Part shown: positions 1,101-62,747 of the stretch, one piece after another
Layout: every line of letters starts with the position of its first letter
How positions within the stretch are numbered: the stretch's first letter is position 1
Origin: an uncultured Methanosarcinaceae archaeon
GTDB taxonomy: Archaea; Halobacteriota; Methanosarcinia; Methanosarcinales; Methanosarcinaceae
DNA length: 64,000 nucleotides
Direction: 5' to 3'
NCBI GenBank assembly: GCA_963721455.1
Contig: CAVRJG010000021.1
Location: forward strand, 252 to 64,251
Notes under the pieces: generated by a model
Told to the model about the DNA's origin: nothing
What the model saw: the letters and a program-made list of their open reading frames with translations, nothing else
Databases searched by the model: none
Translations under genes and position numbers: made by a program

Positions 1101-2876
1101 GTATCCTCTTCAAATTGAGTGGAAAGCTTTCAATTTCAACTCAATGAGCTTTTTTCTCTAATGAGTTGAGCCAAAGATGGCATCTCAAATGTATTGCTCA
1201 CTCTATCACATATGTACTGATATGCACTTATACTCAGTTTCTTTGCAGTCTGAACAATCGTCATAAATGTGTCGTTTGCCTTTGTCCCTTCATCTGTTAT
1301 GGTTTGAAGGCTCACATCTCTTTTTCTAACCTTTGCTCTCGCCGCTAGTTCCGCTGCATTGTTATGCAGTGGAACTTCTGGTAAAACCAGTACTTTTAAC
1401 AGATGTCCCTTGTTCTCTTTCGTCTTACCTATTCTTTCATCCAACTGTTCATATCCTGTTATAGTCGAAAACAATTGATCAAACTTAATGGATAATTGCT
1501 CCGCTACCTCTGAATCTGGTTTTATTCTAAACTCACAAAGTTCCCCATAAAAGTCCCAGTACCTGTCCAGAAAAGCTTCCAGCTTTTCTTTAAAATAAGG
1601 TACTATTGGCCTCAATTTCTTGTAGTTTCTCCCATCATGAATCCAACAAAGAGCATGATGTGATGCAATCTGCTTGAATTGACGTGCATCATCACTCAGA
1701 AGTGTGGTAACCACAGGTATGTCTGTACTTTGATGATATGCCGCAATTGCACAGGCTTCAAGAACTTTCTTCTTAGTAGTTTTATACCCTTTGAGTGAGA
1801 AAACACAATCCAGTTTTCGACGCATTTCTTCATCACTGAATATTTTGTTTTTAAAAGAAGAGAGCTTTTCCATCCAGATTTGGGAAACATTAAACGTTTC
1901 CATCAGATCAAATGCTTCATCATTAAAGCAGTACGTTTTTTCTTTTCCACATAGAAGTATATCTAAAATGGTTTCCCTATTCTTATTGGGAACTGTAAAA
2001 TAAGCAGCATAATAAGGATTACAAAGAATTTGAGTATAGTGATTGACACCATTGACTCTTGCACCTGTATCATCAATCTGCTGATAAGGCGTAGCCTTAA
2101 GACCCTCAAGAAAAATCTCAGCTTTTTCCTGATGGAAGATATCAGTATCTTTTGTCAAAATTCGAGAAATAGTGGCTCTGGATATATGAACACCAATATT
2201 TTCCAGAAATTCATGTATTTTGGGCTCTGAAACATTAGCAACATGGTTAAGAGTGATTATAAGAGATTTGATTCCAGGGCCAAATTCACCTTTGATACCA
2301 TGTGGCAATTCTCCTGAATATGTTTTATGCTCAGAAGGAGAATAAAATATCTCTATCCTGTAGTTGGTGTTCACAGGCTTTATGGATATATCCTGAATTA
2401 TTACGTCCCTATAACCTTTAGGATACACATCACTGGGTAAAACGGATCTATCAACTTTACATGTTTCAGTTCGGTGAACCTCTATTTTATCAAGTTTTGA
2501 TTTAGATTCTGTGTCCTATGGAAGCCTTTGTTTTTGTCTCTCTTTTTCAGAAGAGATGTCTTCATTTTTTTTAGAGCCACGAATCTTAGGTTTGGTTTGT
2601 TCACCTTTGAGTAAGTTAATTTCGTCTCGAAGCTTTTGGTTCTCTGCTTTGAGGAATTCAATCTCTTCGTTCTGCTTTTCAATGATAGCAAACAAAATGC
2701 GAAAAGCTGTAGCATACCTTTTATCCTCAATTTCATCAGGATTGATATCCAAAGATGCCAGCAATTGTTTTAAAGCTTCGAGTTCCATCTTTTTACTCCA
2801 AAATATGATAAGGGTAAATGGAGCAACTATTATATTTTTCCTGTGATTGAAAACCCATCTAATTTGAAGAGGATAC
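1101..2876 (-). mobile_element. IS66-like insertion sequence (1776 bp) with terminal inverted repeats
   Basis: GTATCCTCTTCAAATT at 1101-1116 is the exact reverse complement of AATTTGAAGAGGATAC at 2861-2876; encloses a transposase ORF. Confidence 0.85.
1136..2788 (-). CDS. IS66-like DDE transposase, single frame with one in-frame TAG (2516-2518)
   Basis: N-terminal coiled coil (MELEALK...NQKLRDEINLLKGE), QQIDDTGARVNG, LLSDDA, HALCWIHDGRNYKKL, PLHNNAAE motifs; the two track ORFs are in the same frame, separated only by TAG. Confidence 0.8.
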
Positions 2877-3096
2877 AATTTGTCTGATAATTAGAATCTT
2901 AAACAAGTATCAGGACTTCTAGAGCGCCAAAATTTGAAGCCTGGCTGTACCTGAGTACGTATAAAGACATGATCTATATAGTACATAGTGAAAAGCTATA
3001 TATAGCTGGCAGGCAACTATAGTATGTCGAAGAGAACTCGGACAGAAAATAAAATAATAAAAAACTAAATACACGCTTTAAAAGAGGTGATAAAAA

Positions 3097-3309
3097 ATGG
3101 AACAACTCAGGAGTTTGATTATCGAAAACGTAGCAATGTTCAATGAAGCGTTCCCTAACAGATTCTGCCATAGCCCGGATGTCATTTTCGCAATCTCGCA
3201 CGACTATCAGTTCACTTACGGACAGATTGAAAACGAGATCGGGAAGATGGTTCATGAAGGAGTTCTTGATGCAGAACTTTCCGATTGGGATGGAATAAAG
3301 ATCTTATAA
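3097..3309 (+). CDS. small hypothetical protein (70 aa)
   Basis: Strong GAGGTGA RBS just before ATG; AT-rich TATA-like sequence upstream; plausible composition. Confidence 0.6.
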   Translation: MEQLRSLIIENVAMFNEAFPNRFCHSPDVIFAISHDYQFTYGQIENEIGKMVHEGVLDAELSDWDGIKIL

Positions 3310-3592
3310 GAATATTGCTGCTCAGCAAGAAGATAAAGGAAATAAATTGGAAATCACAAAACACTGCAAGACGACATAAAGAATTAAATTGATACATCAA
3401 AAATCAATTGAGAAATACTGGATTAGACTGAGTATTTAAGAATTTAACTGAATGTCCAGTCCTTTGATTAAGTATTCGGCCATGAGCCGAGTGTCCAAGC
3501 AGGATAAAGAGATATACAGCGAGAAATCCACCTAAAATTTCGCCAGTAGCTAACTTCTTTTTCCCCTTAAAATCTTTTAATCCTGAACAATT

Positions 3593-4290
3593 TCAAGAAG
3601 CGAGCATTTTGCATAGCTGCCCTTTTTCGGATAAATATCTTTTAGCATGTTCCACGAACAGGACATGGTACTCCTGATGCAGTTCCGAATCTTGAGAAAA
3701 ATATTCTTCAAAGAGCGCCTTGATATGGTCGTAATCTGCCTTGTCATCAGTAAGTTCCAAGTTTGTTAATATTCTTCTCATGGATGCATCGACTACAAAA
3801 AGGATGATTTTTTGGAGACGTACAGCATAATAGAATCTGCAGTCTCCGGGCCTACACCCTTTAAAGACAGAAGTTCTTTCCTCTCAGGCGTTCTGCCTTT
3901 GAGCTCCATAAACCAACTGGCAAGGTTTTTGAGGCGCATTGCTTTCTGGTTATAATAGTCCGCTGGCTTGATAGATTCTTTTAAAACCTCCGGGCAAAGG
4001 GAAATTACGGCTTCAGGGCAAAGGGCATTTAGCCGTTTAAGGTTGAGAAGAGCCTTTTCAACCTGCATCCAGCTTATTGTTCGGGTAAGCACGGTTCTAC
4101 TGATAACCTTAAAATGCTGATTTCTGACTTGAGAGTAGATATAGTCGGCAGGATGGTAGTATGTAGGACAGAATCCATTTCTGTAGAATCTGTTCCAGTA
4201 GTTCTGGGAGAAGCATGCGGCAGGATGGCAGTAAAAGCCAAGAAAGAACAAGCACAAGGTTCCTGGATGTTACCGACAAAGAAACTCTTT
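3593..4290 (-). pseudogene. endonuclease III-like HhH-GPD DNA glycosylase, frameshifted
   Basis: SWMQVEKALLNLK, IKPADYYNQKAMRLK, ELLSLKGVGPETADSIMLY (HhH-GPD), then shifts frame to VDA..RRI...YDHIKALFEE...HQEYHVLFVEHAK; additional shift upstream. Confidence 0.8.
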
Positions 4291-4458
4291 CAGAAACTCT
4301 TGAGGAAGTTATTGAATCCAGGAAAATAAAGGGTTGAAAGATGTTTTCCAATTTTTCCATAGCTGTGGTTGCGGGTCATCTGGCCAATTTGATGACACTG
4401 TGGAAGCTGTCATAGAAAATCAGGAATGATGCCAGGCAGATAGACACTGAACCTGGTG

Positions 4459-4941
4459 TCATTTCTCAAATGTCTGCAAGATCCAGTCTTTTATCTCATC
4501 TCTGACTCGCCGGAAGACTCTGAGCCGCTCTTCTTCCGATCCCACCGTCGCGGCAGGATCCTCAAAACTTTTGTGAATTACTTCTCTTGCTTTGGGAGAT
4601 TTGGTCGGGAGCTCCAGATTCGTGCTGCAGATAGGGCAGGCCACTTTAGCCCGATCGCAGACCGTGACCGCCAGGTCAAATATGGTACCCTGAAATTCTT
4701 GGGGAGTTTTGGAGCGCTGACTGGAGATATCGATGCCGATTTCCTTCATGACTATAACAGCGTGAGGATTAACAGTTGTGGCCTTAACGCCGGCGCTGTA
4801 AGCCTCGTATCGATCTCCATAAATAGCCCTTAAAAGACCTTCGGCCATTTGTGACCTAGCTGAGTTATGGGTACACAGAAAAAGAATTTTCTTCTTTTCC
4901 TGTGGTCTCGTATTTGTTACCATCTTATTATTATTGCGCAT
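4459..4941 (-). CDS. arsC: arsenate reductase / low-molecular-weight PTPase family
   Basis: ILFLCTHNSARSQMAEG P-loop (CX5R), AYSAG, VTVCD, FEDPA. Confidence 0.9.
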   Translation of the reverse strand: MRNNNKMVTNTRPQEKKKILFLCTHNSARSQMAEGLLRAIYGDRYEAYSAGVKATTVNPHAVIVMKEIGIDISSQRSKTPQEFQGTIFDLAVTVCDRAKVACPICSTNLELPTKSPKAREVIHKSFEDPAATVGSEEERLRVFRRVRDEIKDWILQTFEK

Positions 4942-19997: not shown

Positions 19998-21233
19998 CTA
20001 TGAGCGAAAATCCCCTTTTTCCTTTCTATCTGAGAGATCACTCAGTTTAAACTGTTTTGTGGATTTTTTAACATCAAAATAATCTCTAGCAGCCTTTCCC
20101 ACGGCTTCGCAGTGTTCTCTCAGGCTGTATACCCCCATTCTCCAGTTATCCATATGGGCCTCCTGCAGGATGGATACGAAATGGGAAGCCTCGTTAAGAG
20201 GGATCATTTTGTGATCCGTCTTTATCATGGCCCGCATTTCTAACATTTCAGGTGTCTTTGGGATGTCCACAAGCACATACCGAGGATCAACCCCGGCGAG
20301 TTCTGCAATTTCTTTTTCTGCTCTCCGGATCCTGTCACGATGCCTGAGTACGGCTTTTCCGACATCTTCAAGTCCCACGTATAGTGCCCGCTTATACAGT
20401 TTACGGGCATCCAGCCGCCGCGAAAGTTCCTCTGCATATCCTGACCCGGTTGCGTTCCGCATTGCTGCCACAAGGTCTATGTCATCCATCTGTCTGAGCC
20501 TTAACGGGTCAAGCTCCTTGTTTTCGATCATGTATTCCACTGCTCTGGAACACATGGCTTCCGAGATCCTGGTTACATGATGATAATAGACGGATGTGTT
20601 CATCCAGAAGCGTGAGACCAGAAGGGATTCGGCAGCTTTTAACCCTCCATAGTCGACAACGAGCCGGTCTTCGTAAAAATTCATTTGATTTATCAGGCGG
20701 TTATAATCTACAACTCCAAAGGCAACCCCTGTGTAATGTGCGTCCCGGACAAGATAATCCATTCTGTCCACATCAATCTCGCTGCTAAGGATCTGCCCTA
20801 TAGAGGTTTCTCCTTTGATGTGTTTTGCAAGGTTTCCGGGGGAAATTCCATATTTGTTCAAGACTTCCCTTATTTCGCCTTTCCCCAGTATTTCCTTTAC
20901 ATCGTCATGCCTGCGCCTCGTGTACCTGTCAATTATATTCTCGGTAACATGGGAAAAAGGTCCGTGCCCCACGTCATGCAGAAGGGATGCGGCTCTTATC
21001 TCAGTTTTTTTGTCCCCTTCAATCGAGTCGAGATTCCGGGTTAGCATGGAGGTAAGGTGCATTGTTCCAAGGGAGTGTTCAAAGCGGGTGTGATTCGCTC
21101 CCGGGTAAACAAGGTTTGAAAAGCCAAGCTGTCTGACCCTTCTGAGGCGCTGCATCTGGGGAGTGGCAAGAAGTTCCTGAATCAAATCGTCCAGCTCGAT
21201 GTAACCGTGTACGGGGTCAAGGACAACTTTCAT
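19998..21233 (-). CDS. HD-domain phosphohydrolase (dNTP triphosphohydrolase-like)
   Basis: DPVHGYI, QRLRRVRQLG, HTRFEHSLG, LLHDVGHGPFSH, DVDRMDYLVRD. Confidence 0.92.
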   Translation of the reverse strand: MKVVLDPVHGYIELDDLIQELLATPQMQRLRRVRQLGFSNLVYPGANHTRFEHSLGTMHLTSMLTRNLDSIEGDKKTEIRAASLLHDVGHGPFSHVTENIIDRYTRRRHDDVKEILGKGEIREVLNKYGISPGNLAKHIKGETSIGQILSSEIDVDRMDYLVRDAHYTGVAFGVVDYNRLINQMNFYEDRLVVDYGGLKAAESLLVSRFWMNTSVYYHHVTRISEAMCSRAVEYMIENKELDPLRLRQMDDIDLVAAMRNATGSGYAEELSRRLDARKLYKRALYVGLEDVGKAVLRHRDRIRRAEKEIAELAGVDPRYVLVDIPKTPEMLEMRAMIKTDHKMIPLNEASHFVSILQEAHMDNWRMGVYSLREHCEAVGKAARDYFDVKKSTKQFKLSDLSDRKEKGDFRS

Positions 21234-31159: not shown

Positions 31160-32914
31160 TCAGGGCATGAGTTTCTTGAAAAATTCTTTAAGCCTGGAGT
31201 ATGGATACGTGTTCACAACGTCTTCTTTTTCAAGCCAGCCCCTACGAGCCTGCCCGAGGCCGTACCGTATGGATGCAAGGTCGGAAATAGCATGGCTGTC
31301 CGTAGAGATACAGAACTTCAAGCCGAAATTCTTTGCTCGCAGGATAAGCTCGTCGTTAAGGTCAAGCCTCGACGGCTGGCTGTTGATTTCCATCACCTTT
31401 CCGTTTGCAGCCGCAGCTTCAAAGACCTTTTCAAAGTTGACGGCATAGGCTTCTCTTTTCCCAAGCAGCCTGCCTGATGGATGGGCGAGAATATCAAGAT
31501 ACCTGTTTTTCAGAGCGGAAACGATTCTTTTGGTCATCTTTTTTTCAGGAGCTGAAAAGCCTGAGTGCACAGCTCCTACCACAATATCGAGTTCTTTGAG
31601 GATTTCATCCGGATAGTCCAGGCTTCCATCTTTCAGGATCTCAACCTCAGAACCTTTGAGGATTTTTATCTTGAAGCGTTTTGAGAGTTTATCAATCTCA
31701 TCCCATTGGACCTTTAATCTTTCTATTTTCATGCCGCTGGCAATCCTCTGGGAACGGGAATGGTCGGTGACTGCGATATACTCATAACCAAGAGCTTCCG
31801 CTTCCCCTATCATGGTTTCAAGGCTTTCTTTTCCTTCGCTATAGTTTGTATGCATATGGAGATCTCCCCTGAGATCACCTGCCTCTATAAGTTCAGGAAG
31901 GGCATTTTTTGCGGCGGCTTTAATTTCTCCCCGGCTTTCCCTAAGTTCGGGTGGGATATAGACAAGGCCCAGTTTTTCATAAATTTCCTCTTCGCTTTTG
32001 CCTGCAATCTGTTTTTCTGACTCTTTTGAATACAGTCCATATTCGGAGAGCTTGTAACCCTTTTTGATTGCAATATTTCTAAGTTCTATATTATGCTCCT
32101 TTGAGCCCGTAAAATATTGAAGCGCTGCTCCGTAACTTTCAGGTGCGACTACCCTCAGGTCAATAGCTGTTCCTTCTCTCAGGATTATACTGCTTTTTGT
32201 GCTGCCTTTTAAGACGACCTGTTCGACGTCCGGAAGGGAGACAAAGGCATCCATTACCTTCAATGCCTCTTCTTTTTCTGCTTCGGCAAGGATATCAATA
32301 TCCCCGATTGTTTCCTTCAACCTGCGAAGCGAGCCTGTGTAGATTATCTTCGAGAGATCTACTTTACATGTAGCGCTCTTACACCCGGCTTTTAAGGCTG
32401 ATATGAGTTCGTCTGCAAGTGGAAGCGCCTTTCCGAGAGCTATCCGGGAATGGCTTTTTTCATACTGTTCAATTGCCCTTGCGAGGTTTTCTTCGCTTTT
32501 TTCTCCGAAGTCTTCCAGTTTCCTGAGTTTGTGTGCATTGATCGCGTTCTTGAGGTCTGAAATATTCATTATTCCAAGGGCATCGGCAAGTTTTTTCATT
32601 CTCTTCGCCCCAAGCCCTCTGATTTCCATCAGTTCCGCAGTGCCTGGAGGGGCTTTCCCTTTAAGCTTTTCAAACTTCTCCACCTTGCCTGTTTCCAGAT
32701 ATTCAGCAATGTGATCGGCAATGGATTCCCCGATACCCGGAATTTCGGTCAGCCCTTCTTTCCCTTTTCTCGCATAGATTTTTTCGATATCTTCCCCAAG
32801 ATTCTCTATCATCTGAGCTGCTTTCCGGTAAGCTCCTGGTTTCCACTCAACCTGCTGGTATTCAAGAATGTCAGCAGCTTCATAAAGTAACTTGGCAATC
32901 TCGCGATTTTTCAA
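31160..32914 (-). CDS. polX: DNA polymerase X with C-terminal PHP domain
   Basis: AYRKAA, GIGESIA, GSLRRLKETIGDIDIL, LQYFTGSKEHN, DLHMHT, TDHS, LAHP, TDSH. Confidence 0.93.
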   Translation of the reverse strand: MKNREIAKLLYEAADILEYQQVEWKPGAYRKAAQMIENLGEDIEKIYARKGKEGLTEIPGIGESIADHIAEYLETGKVEKFEKLKGKAPPGTAELMEIRGLGAKRMKKLADALGIMNISDLKNAINAHKLRKLEDFGEKSEENLARAIEQYEKSHSRIALGKALPLADELISALKAGCKSATCKVDLSKIIYTGSLRRLKETIGDIDILAEAEKEEALKVMDAFVSLPDVEQVVLKGSTKSSIILREGTAIDLRVVAPESYGAALQYFTGSKEHNIELRNIAIKKGYKLSEYGLYSKESEKQIAGKSEEEIYEKLGLVYIPPELRESRGEIKAAAKNALPELIEAGDLRGDLHMHTNYSEGKESLETMIGEAEALGYEYIAVTDHSRSQRIASGMKIERLKVQWDEIDKLSKRFKIKILKGSEVEILKDGSLDYPDEILKELDIVVGAVHSGFSAPEKKMTKRIVSALKNRYLDILAHPSGRLLGKREAYAVNFEKVFEAAAANGKVMEINSQPSRLDLNDELILRAKNFGLKFCISTDSHAISDLASIRYGLGQARRGWLEKEDVVNTYPYSRLKEFFKKLMP

Positions 32915-32997: not shown

Positions 32998-34740
32998 TCA
33001 AATTCCTTCCTTCAAATTCCTGATATCTTTAACTGTAGTAACGTCAGAGGGCCCTTTATCGTATCTTATGCGTAAAAAGCGGGGAAAGCGCAAAGCAAGC
33101 CCTTTCTCCCCTTCCCCCTCTCCGGCGGTATGCCCCGGGCTTTCTGTTATTTCCATGCCAAGAGCTTCAATAACCACAGTGGGCTCCACGAAAGTATCAG
33201 GGAGCATTCTACTTTTTATGAATACATCTTTTGGGGCGTCAGCTATGATATGCTCTGAAAGCAGGCTGTCGATCTCTTTTGCATCCGCGTCGGTGAAACC
33301 TGTCCCCACTTTTGTGAAGGTTTCAAAACGCTGTTTATCTTCGTTGAGGACTGCACAGAGGAGAGCCCCAAATGAGCCTTTCCTTTTTCCTCGCCCGTAA
33401 TATTTTCCTACAATTACAAGGTCAAAGGTCTCCCTCATTCCTTCTGCATATTCTTCTTTCCATTTGAGCCAGAACCAGCTCCTTTTCCCGGCTTCGTAAA
33501 CAGAATTGCTGCCCATAGCTTTAATTACGATTCCTTCAAGCTTCTTTTCCAGGGTTTCGTTAAAAAAGTCCTCAATTTCTTCCAGATTATCAGTAACAAT
33601 TCTTCTGGCCAGGCGAATAATCCCCGATTCCTTTACATGCTCTTCAAGGAGCGTTCTTCTTTTCGGGTAGGGCTCTTTCAGGAGGGATCTTCCTTCCAGG
33701 TACAGGACATCAAAGAAAAAGATAGCTACAGGGCATATTTCAGTATATTTTCCAACCTCATACTTCCTGCGCCTCTGCATAAGTTTCTGGAATGGATAAA
33801 ATTCTTCTGTGGAGTCATTTCCTTTCCTGTCTTCGATGTATGCGACAATTTCCCCGTCAAGCACTATTTTATCCGCAAGAACGCTTTTCCTGGCAGCTTC
33901 GACGAGATCGGGATACTGGGCAGTTATATTCTCAAGCCTTCGAGAGAAGGCTTTAATCTCATTCCCGTCTTTATGGATCTGCACCCTCTCTCCATCATAT
34001 TTTTCTTCGGCTGCTTTTTTTCCGGAAATCCTTTCTTCAAGCTCTTCGAAAGTTTCCACGCGCTGGGCAAGCATCGACCTGACAGGCCTGCCCAGTTTTA
34101 TGGAAAAATGCCCGGATGCCCCGGACCCGTATTCTGCAAGGGATTCTGCAAGCTCTCCAATGTCAGTGCAGACGCTGTAGCTCTCCTTGATTTTTCCGGT
34201 GTATTTTTTGTCCCCTGTAAAAGCAATAGAAAATGCTTCGAGCAAAAACTGGTCCCCGACTCCCAGCCTGAGCCTCCCGAGGACAATCCTGATTATATAT
34301 TTCCCTTCTTCAGGGCTGGCCCGTTGCAGGATGTCGGACAGGAGCCCGGTCTTTTCCTCCTGGCTTCCTTTTCCTGAGGCTTCTTTTATCTCTCTGAGCC
34401 TTCCGAAGACCTCTCCAATTGTCAGGGAATTCCGTTCTCTCTCGTTTAACTCAAATGCCACATCCCCAAGGTCCCCTGTCCTTGAATATCTTTGTTTAAC
34501 TTCCTTTTCGGAAACTCCGTATGCCCCTGCAATAGCTTTTAAAGCAAGCTTTTCCCCGATTCCAAGTGTCGTGTTCTCAAAGGCAGGCCCTATGCTCCCG
34601 AGAAAAAGATATGCACTGTCCTTTACTTCCTTTCCTTCCAGCTCCTAAAAAAAATTAGCTATTTTCCTGACTATCTCTTTATAAGATGTTATCTTTTCAA
34701 GTTCCTCAAAAAGTTCTGCAAGCTCCATGAACCGAGCCAT
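32998..34740 (-). CDS. lig: ATP-dependent DNA ligase, with in-frame TAG at codon 32 (34645-34647)
   Basis: EEKYDGERVQIHK (KxDG), LDGEIV, FFDVLY, EGIVIK, WLKWK, LRFPRF; the frame extends upstream of the track start to ATG 34740 through a single TAG with ligase-like YLFLG..LGI..A..GDLGDVA sequence. Confidence 0.88.
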
Positions 34741-34954
34741 TGCCCTCTCCCCGAAAAAACGCCTTGAAATTTTTCTTTACCTATTATTCCATCCCCAGGT
34801 CTTTATCGTTTTGCACCCTCAAATTTCAGAAATAGAATCTTTCCTCTTTCTCCCACTAAAACAGCTACCCTCGCCATCCTCCCCTCATTACCGAAACCTT
34901 TAATATCTAAAAGATGCATGAGAAGAATAACACAGCACTTCTTTATATCCGTAT

Positions 34955-35026
34955 GCGACTGTGGTTTAGTGGCTATGACCTGAGCTTCCCAAGCTTAGAA
35001 CCCGGGTTCGAATCCCGGCAGTCGCA
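34955..35026 (+). tRNA. tRNA-Gly (CCC)
   Basis: GCGACTG/CAGTCGC acceptor, TGAGC-TTCCCAA-GCTTA anticodon arm, CCGGG-TTCGAAT-CCCGG T arm; TTTATA box upstream. Confidence 0.97.
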
Positions 35027-35141
35027 TTGAAAACTCTTTTAGCTATTTTTAAAAATATCGCATATTTTGTCTTCGTTCTTGAAATTTAAAAAAGTATTTT
35101 TGCAGAAAACCTTCTGAAAATACTCTTTTCCAGCTAGACTT

Positions 35142-37018: not shown

Positions 37019-38359
37019 ATGAAAATGAAATTAATAGTTTATCTGCTAGCGTTATGCCTAACGTTGTCTGTTGCGTCTGTGCAAGCAAATACTGGCGAAG
37101 TTGAAATGGATAACATGACCGGAATGCATACTTCTGATTTTACCGGCGTGATGACATGTATGCCTGGAACCATGGACAACATGACAGGCGTGGACAATAT
37201 GACAGGCATGGACAACATGACTGGAATGTATATCTGTGATTTTTCCGGCGTAATGACATCTATGCCTAGAACCATGGACAACATGACAGACATGGATAAC
37301 ATGACAGACATGGACAATATGACCGGTATGGATAACATGACCGGAATGCGTACTTCTGATTTTTCCGGCGTGATGACATGTATGCCTAGAACCATGGATA
37401 ACATGACCGGTATGGATAACATGACCGGTATGGATAACATGACCGGAATGCATACTTGTGATTTTTCCGGCGTGATGACATCTATGCCTAGAACCATGGA
37501 CAACATGACAGACATGGACAACATGACAGGCATGGACAACATGACCGGTATGGATAACATGACCGGAATGCGTACTTCTGATTTTTCCGGCGTAATGACC
37601 TGTATGCCTAGAACCATGGACAACATGACAGACATGGACAACATGACCGGCACGGACAACATGACCGGAATGTATATCTGTGATTTTTCCGGCGTGATGA
37701 CATCTATGCCTAGAACCATGGACAACATGACAGGCATGGACAACATGACAGGCATGGACAACATGACCGGCACGGACAACATGACAGACATGGACAACAT
37801 GACAGACATGGACAACGTGACCGGAATGTATATCTGTGATTTTTCCGGTGTGATGACATTTATGCCTAGAGCCATGGACAACATGACAGGCATGGATAAC
37901 GTGACAGGCATGGACAACATGACTGGCATGGACAACATGACCGGAACGCGTACTTATGATTTTTCCGGCGTAATGACCTGTATGCCTAGAACCATGGACA
38001 ACATGACAGACATGGACAACATGACTGGCATGGATAATGTGACAGGCATGGATAACGTGACAGGCATGGATAACATGACCGGAAATGCAACCGGTGCAGG
38101 TGCGGACGGCAAGATTGTTGAAGTGTCAATCAAGGATTCTGCCTTTAATCCCAAATCAGTTACAGTATTAAAAGGTGATACTGTAAGATGGACGAACCTT
38201 GATTCAACTGCCCACACAATTACAGGTTCGACTTTCGATTCCGGCACACTTCAAGAAGGAGAATCATATGATTTCCCGTGTGCCGACGCAGGCACCTATG
38301 AGTATCATTGCTCGATTCACCCTTCCATGAAGGGGACTGTAATAGTTGAGGAGAAATAA
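37019..38359 (+). CDS. secreted Met-rich repeat protein with C-terminal cupredoxin (type-1 Cu) domain
   Basis: Signal peptide; (MDNMTG)n repeats; VRWTN.D..AHTIT...YEYHCSIHPSMKGTVIV. Confidence 0.88.
   Translation: MKMKLIVYLLALCLTLSVASVQANTGEVEMDNMTGMHTSDFTGVMTCMPGTMDNMTGVDNMTGMDNMTGMYICDFSGVMTSMPRTMDNMTDMDNMTDMDNMTGMDNMTGMRTSDFSGVMTCMPRTMDNMTGMDNMTGMDNMTGMHTCDFSGVMTSMPRTMDNMTDMDNMTGMDNMTGMDNMTGMRTSDFSGVMTCMPRTMDNMTDMDNMTGTDNMTGMYICDFSGVMTSMPRTMDNMTGMDNMTGMDNMTGTDNMTDMDNMTDMDNVTGMYICDFSGVMTFMPRAMDNMTGMDNVTGMDNMTGMDNMTGTRTYDFSGVMTCMPRTMDNMTDMDNMTGMDNVTGMDNVTGMDNMTGNATGAGADGKIVEVSIKDSAFNPKSVTVLKGDTVRWTNLDSTAHTITGSTFDSGTLQEGESYDFPCADAGTYEYHCSIHPSMKGTVIVEEK
37108..38082 (+). repeat. nested 18-bp repeats in higher-order units
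   Basis: ATGGACAACATGACAGGC-type 18-mers in runs of 3-6 separated by eight DFSGVMTxMPRT spacers. Confidence 0.9.
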
Positions 38360-38641
38360 AGGTTTAGTTGAGGAGAAGTAAAGGTTTGGTTTTAGAGTGG
38401 ACTGAATGAAGGAAATACCAGTCTGCTCAAAACTCTTTATTTATCTTTATTTTATAATTGAAGAGCTTTAAAACGATTATCCTTTTTTTGAGTTACTTTA
38501 TATGACATTTCTTACTGAAATAAATTTAACAAAGATATCTATAAATGCTCCGAAAATTAATAGCATTTATCCAATTTTTCTTTTAAAAGCAGGGCTGCAC
38601 TCACCTGGCAATCTCAATAAATTTCGGTGACAAGTAAACAA

Positions 38642-39403
38642 ATGGATAAAGAGCGATTAAATGAAGAAAGAATAGAGTTACTTTCCCAAATTAATGCTCT
38701 TTTTGATTTTCCTCTAATGCTCTTGTCGGTTGTATGGTTAATTCTAATTCTTGTCGATTTTGTCTACGGGCTTTCTCCATTTTTGCAAACATTAAATCTG
38801 GTTATCTGGGGTATATTTATAATTGATTTTTTTATCGAACTGGATATTTCCCCGAAAAAAAAGGATTACTTAAAGAAGAACTGGCTTGTAGCTCTTTCAC
38901 TGTTTTTGCCCGCATTGAGGATTTTAAGCTTATTTCGCGGATTCAGGATAGCCAGATTTGCTAATTTTGTCCGATCCCTTAATCTGGCCCGGATTCTCTC
39001 TTCTTTTAATAGAAGCTTAAGAACGGTCCGGCAGGTAATGAGGCAGCGAGGCTTGAAATATATCCTCCTTCTTACGACTTTGATAACTTTTCTTGGAGCA
39101 GCAGGCATGTACGATTTTGAGCGTTCAGGGCTTACTTCTTATTGGGACGCCCTCTGGTGGACAGCAATGATTATGACGACAATAGGAAGCGATTACTGGC
39201 CAAAAACTGCCGAAGGAAGGGTACTGGCTTTTCTTTTATCGGTTTATGCTTTTGCAATTTTCGGATACATTACCGCAGCCATTGCAAGTCTACTTGTCGG
39301 AAAAGATAAAGAGTCATCTTCAAAAGAGATTGCAGAGCTCCGCAGTGAAGTACAGCGCCTTTCCAGTGAAATTAACGAGGTTCCCAAAAGAGAAAAAAAG
39401 TAG
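38642..39403 (+). CDS. potassium channel / ion transporter
   Basis: S4-like LRILSLFRGFRIARF; pore YWDALWWTAMIMTTIGSDYWP; GYITA. Confidence 0.85.
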   Translation: MDKERLNEERIELLSQINALFDFPLMLLSVVWLILILVDFVYGLSPFLQTLNLVIWGIFIIDFFIELDISPKKKDYLKKNWLVALSLFLPALRILSLFRGFRIARFANFVRSLNLARILSSFNRSLRTVRQVMRQRGLKYILLLTTLITFLGAAGMYDFERSGLTSYWDALWWTAMIMTTIGSDYWPKTAEGRVLAFLLSVYAFAIFGYITAAIASLLVGKDKESSSKEIAELRSEVQRLSSEINEVPKREKK

Positions 39404-61166: not shown

Positions 61167-62747
61167 ATGAGCATGGAAATCAATAATACCGAAATGGCGG
61201 AAGAAATGTCGGAAGAACGGTCGGATAATTCTCCACTGTCTGACAATAATGTTACTCTGTCTGACAATAATAACTTCTCAGAAAACAGAGTTTTTGATGA
61301 CTCAAAAATTGCAAAATTAAACGGCATCCGAAGCCAGGGAATTAACCCATACCCCTATAAGTTCGAGAAGAATGGAGATATCCGTGATATACTGGAAAAA
61401 TTTGAAGATTTCGAGAAGAATGAGGGTTTAACTGTCCGAACCGCAGGAAGGCTTTACAATATCCGCAAGCATGGAAAAATGATATTTGCCGACCTCGGGG
61501 ACCAGGCAGGCAGGATTCAGTTCCTTTTAAGGAAAGGGAACCTTCCTGATGAGGACTTCGAAACTTTTAAAAACCTGGTTGATTCGGGAGATATCATAGG
61601 CATTCAGGGCGAGCTTTTCAGGACAAAAAGGGGTGAAAACTCTATCAGCGTGTCTGAGTTTTCCCTGCTCTCAAAATCCCTCTGCGCCCTTCCCGAAAAA
61701 TTCCACGGCTTAAAAGACATTGAAACCAGGTACAGGAAGAGATACCTTGACCTCATAGTCAATGCTGAAAAAAGGGATATTTTCGTCATGAGGAGCAAAC
61801 TCGTCTCAGAAATCAGGAGATTCCTTACTGAAAGGGAGTTTCTGGAGTTTGAAACTCCTGTGCTCCAGACCGTGTACGGAGGCGCAAATGCAAGGCCTTT
61901 CATGACTTTCCACAACTGCCTCGGGCAGAACCTCTTCCTGAGAATAGCCCCCGAACTCTACCTTAAAAGGCTTGTCGTTGGCGGGTATGAGAAGGTCTTT
62001 GAGATCGCCAAGAATTTCAGGAACGAAGACATCGACACGACCCATAACCCTGAGTTCACTATGATCGAGGTCTACGAGGCTTACAGGGACTACAATGACA
62101 TGATGGACTTAACCGAAGGCCTGATCTCGGAACTCGCGCTCAAGCTCACCGGCGGCTACGAAGTCAAAATAGGCGAAAACACGATTAACCTCCGTTCTCC
62201 CTGGAAGAGGATTTCTATGGAAGACGCCTTAAAAGAGTATGCCGGGCTTGATATCTTTGCCCACTCACTTGAAGAACTGAGGCAAATCGCAATCGAAAAC
62301 AGGATTGAGGATTACGAAAAGGCAAAGAGCTACGGAGAGTTCCTTGCCCTGCTCTTTGAGGGCCTGGTAGAAGACAAGCTGATAAATCCGACTTTCATAT
62401 ACGACTTCCCTGTGGAAAATTCCCCGCTTGCCAAGAACCACAGGTCAAAAGAAGGGTTTGTAGAGAGATTCGAACTCTTCCTTAACGGGTGGGAACTGGC
62501 AAACGGCTATTCAGAGTTAAATGATCCTCTTGAGCAGGAAAAGAGGTTCGAAGAACAGGATAAGAAAAGGAAGCTGGGAGACCTTGAAGCCCAGACAGTT
62601 GATTACGACTTCATAAACGCCCTCGGATACGGACTGCCCCCGACCGGTGGCATGGGGCTTGGAATCGACCGTCTTACCATGATCCTTGCGGGCCTGGAAT
62701 CCATCAAGGAAGTAATCCTCTTCCCGCAGATGAAAAGAGAGGATTGA
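61167..62747 (+). CDS. lysS: class II lysyl-tRNA synthetase
   Basis: OB fold, RYRKRYLDL, FETPVLQ, LRIAPELYLKRL, FRNE..D.THNPEF, GLPPTGGMGLGIDR. Confidence 0.97.
   Translation: MSMEINNTEMAEEMSEERSDNSPLSDNNVTLSDNNNFSENRVFDDSKIAKLNGIRSQGINPYPYKFEKNGDIRDILEKFEDFEKNEGLTVRTAGRLYNIRKHGKMIFADLGDQAGRIQFLLRKGNLPDEDFETFKNLVDSGDIIGIQGELFRTKRGENSISVSEFSLLSKSLCALPEKFHGLKDIETRYRKRYLDLIVNAEKRDIFVMRSKLVSEIRRFLTEREFLEFETPVLQTVYGGANARPFMTFHNCLGQNLFLRIAPELYLKRLVVGGYEKVFEIAKNFRNEDIDTTHNPEFTMIEVYEAYRDYNDMMDLTEGLISELALKLTGGYEVKIGENTINLRSPWKRISMEDALKEYAGLDIFAHSLEELRQIAIENRIEDYEKAKSYGEFLALLFEGLVEDKLINPTFIYDFPVENSPLAKNHRSKEGFVERFELFLNGWELANGYSELNDPLEQEKRFEEQDKKRKLGDLEAQTVDYDFINALGYGLPPTGGMGLGIDRLTMILAGLESIKEVILFPQMKRED

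Follow-up and report, generated by a model that had tools for sequence, protein, structure and literature searches.

How can a full-length DNA ligase be made from a gene that carries a stop codon close to its start? The question is raised by an ATP-dependent DNA ligase gene in DNA from an uncultured Methanosarcinaceae archaeon, analysed as one stretch of 64,000 nucleotides (nt; hereafter the window). Translation of the minus strand from an ATG at 34740-34738 to a TGA at 33000-32998 gives 580 codons plus the stop, and the sole in-frame stop before the end of the ligase is a TAG at codon 32 (34647-34645, minus strand), in a frame that is otherwise unbroken. The peptide around this amber codon reads MARFMELAELFEELEKITSYKEIVRKIANFF-TAG-ELEGKEVKDSAYLFLG. 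A first-pass annotation had described the same start, the same 580 codons and a single TAG at codon 32 without a frameshift, all of which retranslation confirmed, and had proposed that the amber codon is tolerated and read as pyrrolysine (Pyl). That proposal is supported by the presence of the TAG throughout a clade, by the constraint on both of its flanks, by the want of a conserved restart codon, by the variability of the site, and by sense codons in relatives that lie a single step from TAG. From these comparisons it is very likely that pyrrolysine is inserted at UAG32, so that the ligase is made at full length, and that the codon represents an old, tolerated recoding, possibly under weak selection.

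The gene and the distribution of its amber codon

The gene (32998..34740, minus strand) has three domains, all matched far above Pfam cut-offs: DNA_ligase_A_N (PF04675) at residues 4-171, DNA_ligase_A_M (PF01068) at 223-428 and DNA_ligase_A_C (PF04679) at 453-562, the first of which crosses codon 32 without interruption. Motif I, KxDGxR, is present as EEKYDGER at residues 245-252, with K247, D249, G250 and R252 invariant in alignment A1, and the closest solved structure is that of Sulfolobus solfataricus ligase (2HIV; E 1.5e-121), which aligns over residues 3-574. Domain architecture and motif I together place the predicted protein among the Lig1, or archaeal replicative, ATP-dependent ligases. 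DNA ligase 1 is a core replication component and is single-copy in most archaea (PMC3914693); by homology to 2HIV and 7RPO and from this single-copy core status, the enzyme would be expected to seal nicks and to join Okazaki fragments in a PCNA-dependent manner.

The amber codon (34645..34647, minus strand), here proposed as a pyrrolysine codon, is real and conserved. Four independent metagenome runs (X1-X4; freshwater and wetland) have Logan contigs that match the window at these positions, and all of them keep the TAG. Ligase ortholog DNA was gathered with one genome per species, and in a first set of 24 Methanosarcina genomes codon 32 is TAG in 14, each of which has 31 open upstream codons, an ATG start and a conserved peptide. 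TAG occupies codon 32 in orthologs L001-L008, L010-L013, L015, L021 and L081-L092; besides the window, at least 16 other species-level lineages of Methanosarcina carry it, and it recurs across a large clade of the genus. Among its carriers are the isolates Methanosarcina sp. MSH10X1 and M. spelaei MC-15, M. thermophila-type genomes, and the complete genomes of M. barkeri MS (CP009528.1, L088) and 227 (CP009530.1, L087).

Further in-frame TAGs have amassed in this gene. A second one, at codon 139, is present in both M. barkeri MS and 227, in place of the Gln of most homologs (ILQRASP becomes IL*RASP), and a metagenome-assembled genome (MAG; L008, positions 1896-1898) has, besides its TAG32, a TAG at codon 6, a position occupied by Glu or Lys in relatives. 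The outgroup consisted of 56 ligase orthologs from outside Methanosarcina, mostly from Methanolobus and from MAGs labelled Woesearchaeota or Micrarchaeota, and no internal stop was found in these 56 with the sole exception of Methanohalophilus euhalobius WG-1MB (L031, 3001-3006), a member of another Pyl-decoding genus. Its ligase begins ATG TAG, that of its sister Methanohalophilus profundi (L038) begins ATG GAG, and codon 2 is here either an independent amber codon or the mark of a shifted start. The true ligase stop is always TGA or TAA in the orthologs examined. Judged from these alignments, the pattern of TAG32 across species is far beyond chance.

Nature and history of position 32

Residues 6, 32 and 139 were placed in secondary structure with an AlphaFold2 (AF2) model, which derives from an alignment of 23 sequences, is poor overall (predicted local distance difference test, pLDDT, 57.6) and is usable for residues 1-200 only. 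The model has helices at residues 4-16, 20-30 and 37-46, with residue 32 in the loop 31-36 and pLDDT of 82-89 for residues 1-50. Position 32 is variable: its entropy ranks 27th of 580 in 75 full-length homologs, in which K, R, S, G, Q, E and V are seen. The sense codons that occupy the site inside the clade are TCA, TCT, TAC, TAT, TGG, AAG, TTA and CAA, each of them one step from TAG when synonymous drift is allowed for, and they include codons for W, Y and L, residues outside the eight commonest at this position in the wider family. Old recoded sites can be recognised simply by such a set of sense codons, all one step from TAG.

In trees, TAG appears at the root of a large clade of 19 taxa, whose basal relatives have CAA (Gln); codon 32 is GAG, CGG, AGG or GTG on the acetivorans/mazei side of the genus and AAG in Methanolobus. 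The first-pass annotation had suggested a Lys or Gln ancestor, and both are plausible, given the CAA of the basal relatives and the AAG (Lys) of Methanolobus. This distribution is consistent with one ancient gain, probably through a change of CAG to TAG, and with occasional losses afterwards that were unconstrained. The amber codon would have arisen once, probably from a Gln codon (CAA or CAG), in the ancestor of the Methanosarcina branch that holds M. barkeri, M. thermophila and M. spelaei. Translation would begin at ATG 34740, and at UAG32 the Pyl-tRNA(CUA) would compete with release factor. Read-through, presumably partial, would yield a 580-residue ligase with pyrrolysine in a surface loop between helices 2 and 3 of the DNA-binding domain, where its side chain would have no catalytic role, and termination would yield a harmless 31-residue peptide. 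The TAG may have been retained since then because position 32 tolerates almost any residue and because early termination costs just that short peptide.

Pyrrolysine gained by neutral drift, as in Thg1, matches this picture in part. The UAG does lie at a variable position, where it is replaceable by S, Y, W, K, L and Q; its occurrence is not recent or restricted to one lineage, and its loss seems slower than the neutral rate. The yardstick for the rate of loss was the fourfold-degenerate sites of the ligase gene on the same tree. With all fourfold sites, about 11 losses of TAG are expected and 2-3 are observed (P 0.003-0.008). A nucleotide-matched test (T, A and G, with G-to-A changes excluded) replaced this version and is weaker, with 6.9 losses expected against 2 observed (P about 0.03), and is treated as a hint only.

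These figures give some support to a different account, in which selection keeps UAG32 as a valve that couples the output of the core ligase, and perhaps of the co-directional gene for a family X DNA polymerase (PolX), to the supply of charged tRNA-Pyl, with functional enzyme still produced by read-through, or, in a variant, in which Pyl32 itself benefits the enzyme. Both loss tests hint at slow loss, the TAG persists although synonymous divergence within the clade is near saturation (dS 0.83), and expression of the Pyl genes is responsive to demand in M. acetivorans (PMC12626013). The loss test is nevertheless crude, relying on a neighbour-joining tree, Fitch counts and 19 taxa and assuming that every replacement is neutral; no RNA signal accompanies the codon; and several losses have been to the chemically unrelated S, Y, W, K and L, which implies that pyrrolysine and stop are both dispensable at this site. 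Selection of this kind is rather improbable.

A related and more far-reaching claim can be put forward tentatively, as unlikely but conceivable: that in the barkeri-thermophila branch the only Lig1-type ligase is made at full length solely through UAG decoding, that the Pyl system would consequently be essential for replication on any substrate, and that the codon, far from being a neutral passenger, is kept by selection as a link between the supply of Pyl-tRNA and ligase dosage. The addition made in the first-pass annotation, that repair by PolX and ligase is tied to the supply of pyrrolysine, is speculation, and any such coupling would touch replication as much as repair, because the ligase is a core ligase of the Lig1 type.

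Translation of both flanks

Pyrrolysine read-through at UAG32 requires that the codons on both sides of the TAG be translated in one frame, and both are constrained in that frame. By the Nei-Gojobori method, applied to 15 TAG-bearing sequences, codons 1-31 (34648..34740, minus strand), which encode the first two helices of the DNA-binding domain in the AF2 model and are also called as a separate 31-residue open reading frame (ORF), have a dS of 0.83, a dN of 0.086 and a dN/dS of 0.10; codons 33-93 have a dN/dS of 0.16. No insertion or deletion was found within the first 100 ligase codons of the same 15 sequences. The start is conserved as well. The ATG and a GGGGAG or GGAGAG motif 6-10 nt upstream of it are kept in all 17 of the TAG-bearing orthologs examined, and the window has a Shine-Dalgarno-like GGGGAGAGGG at 34743..34752 (minus strand), directly before the start codon.

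The alternative is that UAG32 simply terminates translation, that the working ligase is a shorter, internally started protein, and that codons 1-31 are a leftover or a micro-ORF. Gene callers and the RefSeq and GenBank records do annotate truncated ligases (417-549 residues), and UAG keeps stop activity in M. acetivorans (PMC12626013). The annotated starts, however, are mutually inconsistent, and no in-frame ATG, GTG or TTG is conserved in codons 33-100 of the 17 TAG-bearing orthologs: a TTG at codon 34 is present in 6 and a GTG at codon 94 in 8. A plain ORF finder begins its only ligase ORF in the window (32998..34461, 487 residues) at this GTG (34459..34461, minus strand), which is unlikely to be a genuine start. 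In L005 and in M. barkeri MS there is no ATG, GTG or TTG at all in frame across codons 33-100, and beyond TAG139 the first start in M. barkeri MS lies near codon 166; an internally started product there would therefore be without most of the DNA-binding domain. Because no restart codon is conserved after the TAG, termination followed by restart does not appear to be a conserved solution. Moreover, codons 1-31 and 33-93, which are under strong purifying selection alike, both belong to the Pfam N-domain, matched from residue 4. Termination as the normal fate of the message is very improbable, and read-through is, as far as the comparison of orthologs can indicate, the only route that would explain selection on both flanks.

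The same comparison bears on the annotation of these ligases in databases. In a protein search many close relatives, at 80-87% identity, have oddly short gene calls (549, 481-499 and 417 residues), of which the 549-residue calls begin two codons past position 32, and several public assemblies call the upstream piece as a separate ORF of 31 residues. Deposited lengths are 549 residues for M. thermophila, M. barkeri 3 and M. spelaei, 524 for M. flavescens, and 417, 431 or 434 for M. barkeri MS and 227, the 417-residue annotation of the last two strains being due to their second TAG at codon 139. In M. barkeri, M. thermophila, M. flavescens and M. spelaei, as in many MAGs, the ligase recorded in databases is accordingly truncated at the N terminus to inconsistent lengths, and the real product is probably a protein of about 580 residues with pyrrolysine at position 32. 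Expression or modelling that started from the deposited sequences would use a ligase with a damaged DNA-binding domain.

Pyrrolysine decoding in the host

Neither pyl genes nor tRNA-Pyl were found in a search of the 64,000-nt window, in agreement with the earlier statement that the pyl genes lie outside it. A weak match to the catalytic domain of PylS (33% over 101 residues) at 61797-62066 falls in ORF 61167-62747 (plus strand), which probably encodes an ordinary class II aminoacyl-tRNA synthetase rather than a pyl product. The four runs that contain the organism of the window (X1-X4) also contain Methanosarcina-type pylT-pylS-pylB-pylC-pylD at similar depth; in run X3 the depth of the pyl contigs is 5.9-7.7 and that of the ligase contig 6.27.

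The window also has what appear to be the habits of a Pyl-decoding genome, in which TAG is seldom used as a normal stop. A rough count over 45 window ORFs gives TGA as the stop in 21, TAA in 20 and TAG in 4, one of the TAGs being internal to a transposase. The three ORFs, of about 44, that end in TAG, at 3793-4257 (minus strand), 19998-21233 (minus strand) and 38627-39403 (plus strand), have a TGA or TAA within 2-6 codons, and these look like back-up stops of the kind expected where UAG is readable. The transposase, of the IS66 family (1136-2788, minus strand; Pfam DDE_Tnp_IS66), has an in-frame TAG at 2518-2516 that divides it into ORF calls of 120 and 430 residues, and transposases of this type have been noted as Pyl-containing in Methanosarcina (bioRxiv 10.1101/2024.09.30.615893). 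Pyl decoding was itself discovered in M. barkeri, a relative with TAG32 (PMC2933860).

Recoding assisted by a PYLIS element, as in mtmB, was considered and rejected after single folds, an alifold consensus and an Rfam scan all proved negative. In 17 orthologs, folding of the first 120 nt 3' of the TAG was no more stable than that of shuffled sequence (z-scores of -1.0 to +1.5); the alifold consensus there is weak (-10.6 kcal/mol; covariation term -0.44; a single compensatory pair); and Rfam returned no PYLIS match even at E <= 10. Insertion of pyrrolysine at UAG is context-independent in Methanosarcina, as seen with Thg1, reporters and RdmS, and PYLIS is not needed for it (PMC2933860, PMC12626013).

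The residue inserted at position 32 would be pyrrolysine, and a near-cognate standard tRNA, for Gln, Lys, Tyr or Trp, is a highly improbable substitute for tRNA-Pyl as the reader of the TAG. Suppression of UAG of that kind occurs in many organisms, and the identity of residue 32 is deduced from sequence, but read-through of this sort seldom exceeds a few percent, the in-frame TAGs of the ligase are confined to Pyl-decoding genera among the orthologs compared, and deletion of pylBCD in M. acetivorans left only truncated forms of the UAG-containing protein RdmS (PMC12626013).

Several points weigh against the interpretation of UAG32 as a tolerated pyrrolysine codon. The slower-than-expected loss of TAG suggests that the codon fits pure neutrality imperfectly. 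Shared metagenomes and matching depth are consistent with pyl genes in the same organism as the window, a link made at the level of the metagenome only. M. acetivorans reads UAG both as stop and as pyrrolysine (PMC12626013), and the yield of full-length ligase is therefore uncertain, and would be lower still with the two UAGs of M. barkeri. Finally, the wetland metatranscriptome X24, the only RNA run found with the gene, covers just 33571-33879.

The first-pass annotation had also allowed for a nonsense mutation or sequencing error beside a run of T, and the TAG does end an 8-T homopolymer (34654-34647), but an error or pseudogene is refuted as the explanation, given that four independent assemblies are concordant, that a homopolymer indel would shift the frame and the ligase frame is unbroken, that orthologs share the TAG, among them complete genomes of cultured strains, and that dN/dS is low on either side of it. 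The hallmarks of a pseudogene (frameshifts, mixed stops and relaxed constraint) are absent from this gene, in which the TAG is the sole interruption. A truly broken copy looks different: in L022 (a Methanosarcina sp. bog_70 MAG, region 3001-4742) there is a frameshift at a G-run near codon 90 together with two in-frame TAA codons, a pattern that reflects either real pseudogenization or faulty assembly.

Neighbouring features

The gene for PolX (31160..32914, minus strand), a family X DNA polymerase with a PHP domain (Pfam HHH_8, HHH_5, DNA_pol_B_thumb and PHP), lies 83 nt downstream of the ligase on the same strand, and the order of ligase and PolX recurs in M. barkeri MS, in M. thermophila-type loci and in others. 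About 210 nt upstream of the ligase start there is a divergent tRNA-Gly(CCC) at 34954-35027 (plus strand), which accounts for a jump in contig depth at that place in the metagenome runs. Within the ligase, residues 24-31 (VRKIANFF; window 34648-34671), just before the TAG, resemble a PCNA-interacting protein (PIP) box minus its leading Gln; a PIP box was considered here and set aside, F30 and F31 being hydrophobic in all homologs and lying at the end of a predicted core helix. Elsewhere in the window, a cupredoxin-domain protein of 446 residues (37019-38359, plus strand) seemingly contains about three tandem repeats of 74 residues, with TAGs 74 codons apart in the antisense frame.

Comparison with known systems

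The solved archaeal ligases, from S. solfataricus (2HIV, 7RPO), Thermococcus (3RR5) and Pyrococcus furiosus (2CFM), share the three-domain architecture of the Methanosarcina enzyme and can be aligned with it over residues 3-577, but none has a recoded stop. Relative to Thermococcus 3RR5, the Methanosarcina ligase is five residues shorter, with a gap after residue 104, at the SFFSQP segment, which we take to be the PCNA-binding motif of Thermococcales ligases.

The amber codon of the Methanosarcina ligase is not mentioned in the literature searched; the supplementary tables of PMC12626013 and bioRxiv 10.1101/2024.09.30.615893 are outside that scope and may list the gene. The supplement of a 2013 prediction paper has succinyl-CoA ligase as the only ligase listed. 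Pyrrolysine has been reported in DNA polymerases and helicases, and the genes concerned are misannotated as fragments (bioRxiv 10.1101/2024.09.30.615893); DNA ligase is not named in the main text of that preprint.

The methylamine methyltransferases MtmB, MtbB and MttB have, like the ligase, an in-frame UAG, and the same pylTSBCD machinery in the same genus. In them pyrrolysine is catalytic and strictly conserved, and mtmB has a PYLIS element, whereas the UAG of the ligase lies at a variable position (S, Y, W, K, L or Q elsewhere) and no PYLIS-like element was found with it. A closer likeness is Thg1, the tRNA-His guanylyltransferase of M. acetivorans (PMC2933860). It too is a housekeeping enzyme unrelated to methylamine metabolism, with an in-frame UAG at a non-conserved position, sense codons in its orthologs and no need of PYLIS, and it is the classic case of pyrrolysine gained by neutral drift (reviewed in PMC2933860). 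The two differ in that the amber codon of Thg1 is found in one species only, whereas UAG32 is found in at least 17 species-level lineages despite near-saturating synonymous divergence, and in that pyrrolysine has been physically seen in Thg1, whereas in the ligase it is deduced from sequence.

A second parallel is the sensor kinase RdmS, and with it a GAF/PAS protein (PMC12626013; bioRxiv 10.1101/2024.09.30.615893); like the ligase, these are non-methyltransferases whose UAG position is conserved across species of the Methanosarcinaceae. Western blots of RdmS reveal both read-through and truncated forms (PMC12626013), and the same behaviour would be expected of the ligase. RdmS, however, is non-essential, whereas the ligase is predicted to be a core replication component, with its UAG very near the N terminus. 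Deletions of pyl genes are viable on methanol in M. acetivorans (PMC12626013), and ligase position 32 is a sense codon in those relatives on the acetivorans/mazei side that were examined. If UAG decoding is the sole route to a full-length ligase, pyrrolysine would be essential in the barkeri-thermophila branch, and it is predicted that pyl deletions in M. barkeri would be lethal or severely harmful unless the ligase TAGs were recoded first.

The ligase also falls within the definition of the Category 1 internal-TAG genes for which Genetic Code 34 has been proposed (bioRxiv 10.1101/2024.09.30.615893): homologous sequence flanks the TAG on either side, and the extension exceeds 15 residues. Nearly all of the new Pyl proteins in that category are singletons in one genome or genus, as are most predicted Pyl proteins other than methyltransferases, whereas the UAG of the ligase is clade-wide. 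The ligase would give a clean test of the extent to which UAG has turned into a sense codon in this branch of Methanosarcina, and it stands out among such genes as an apparently old and clade-wide case in a core replication enzyme, with two such codons in the type strain of M. barkeri.

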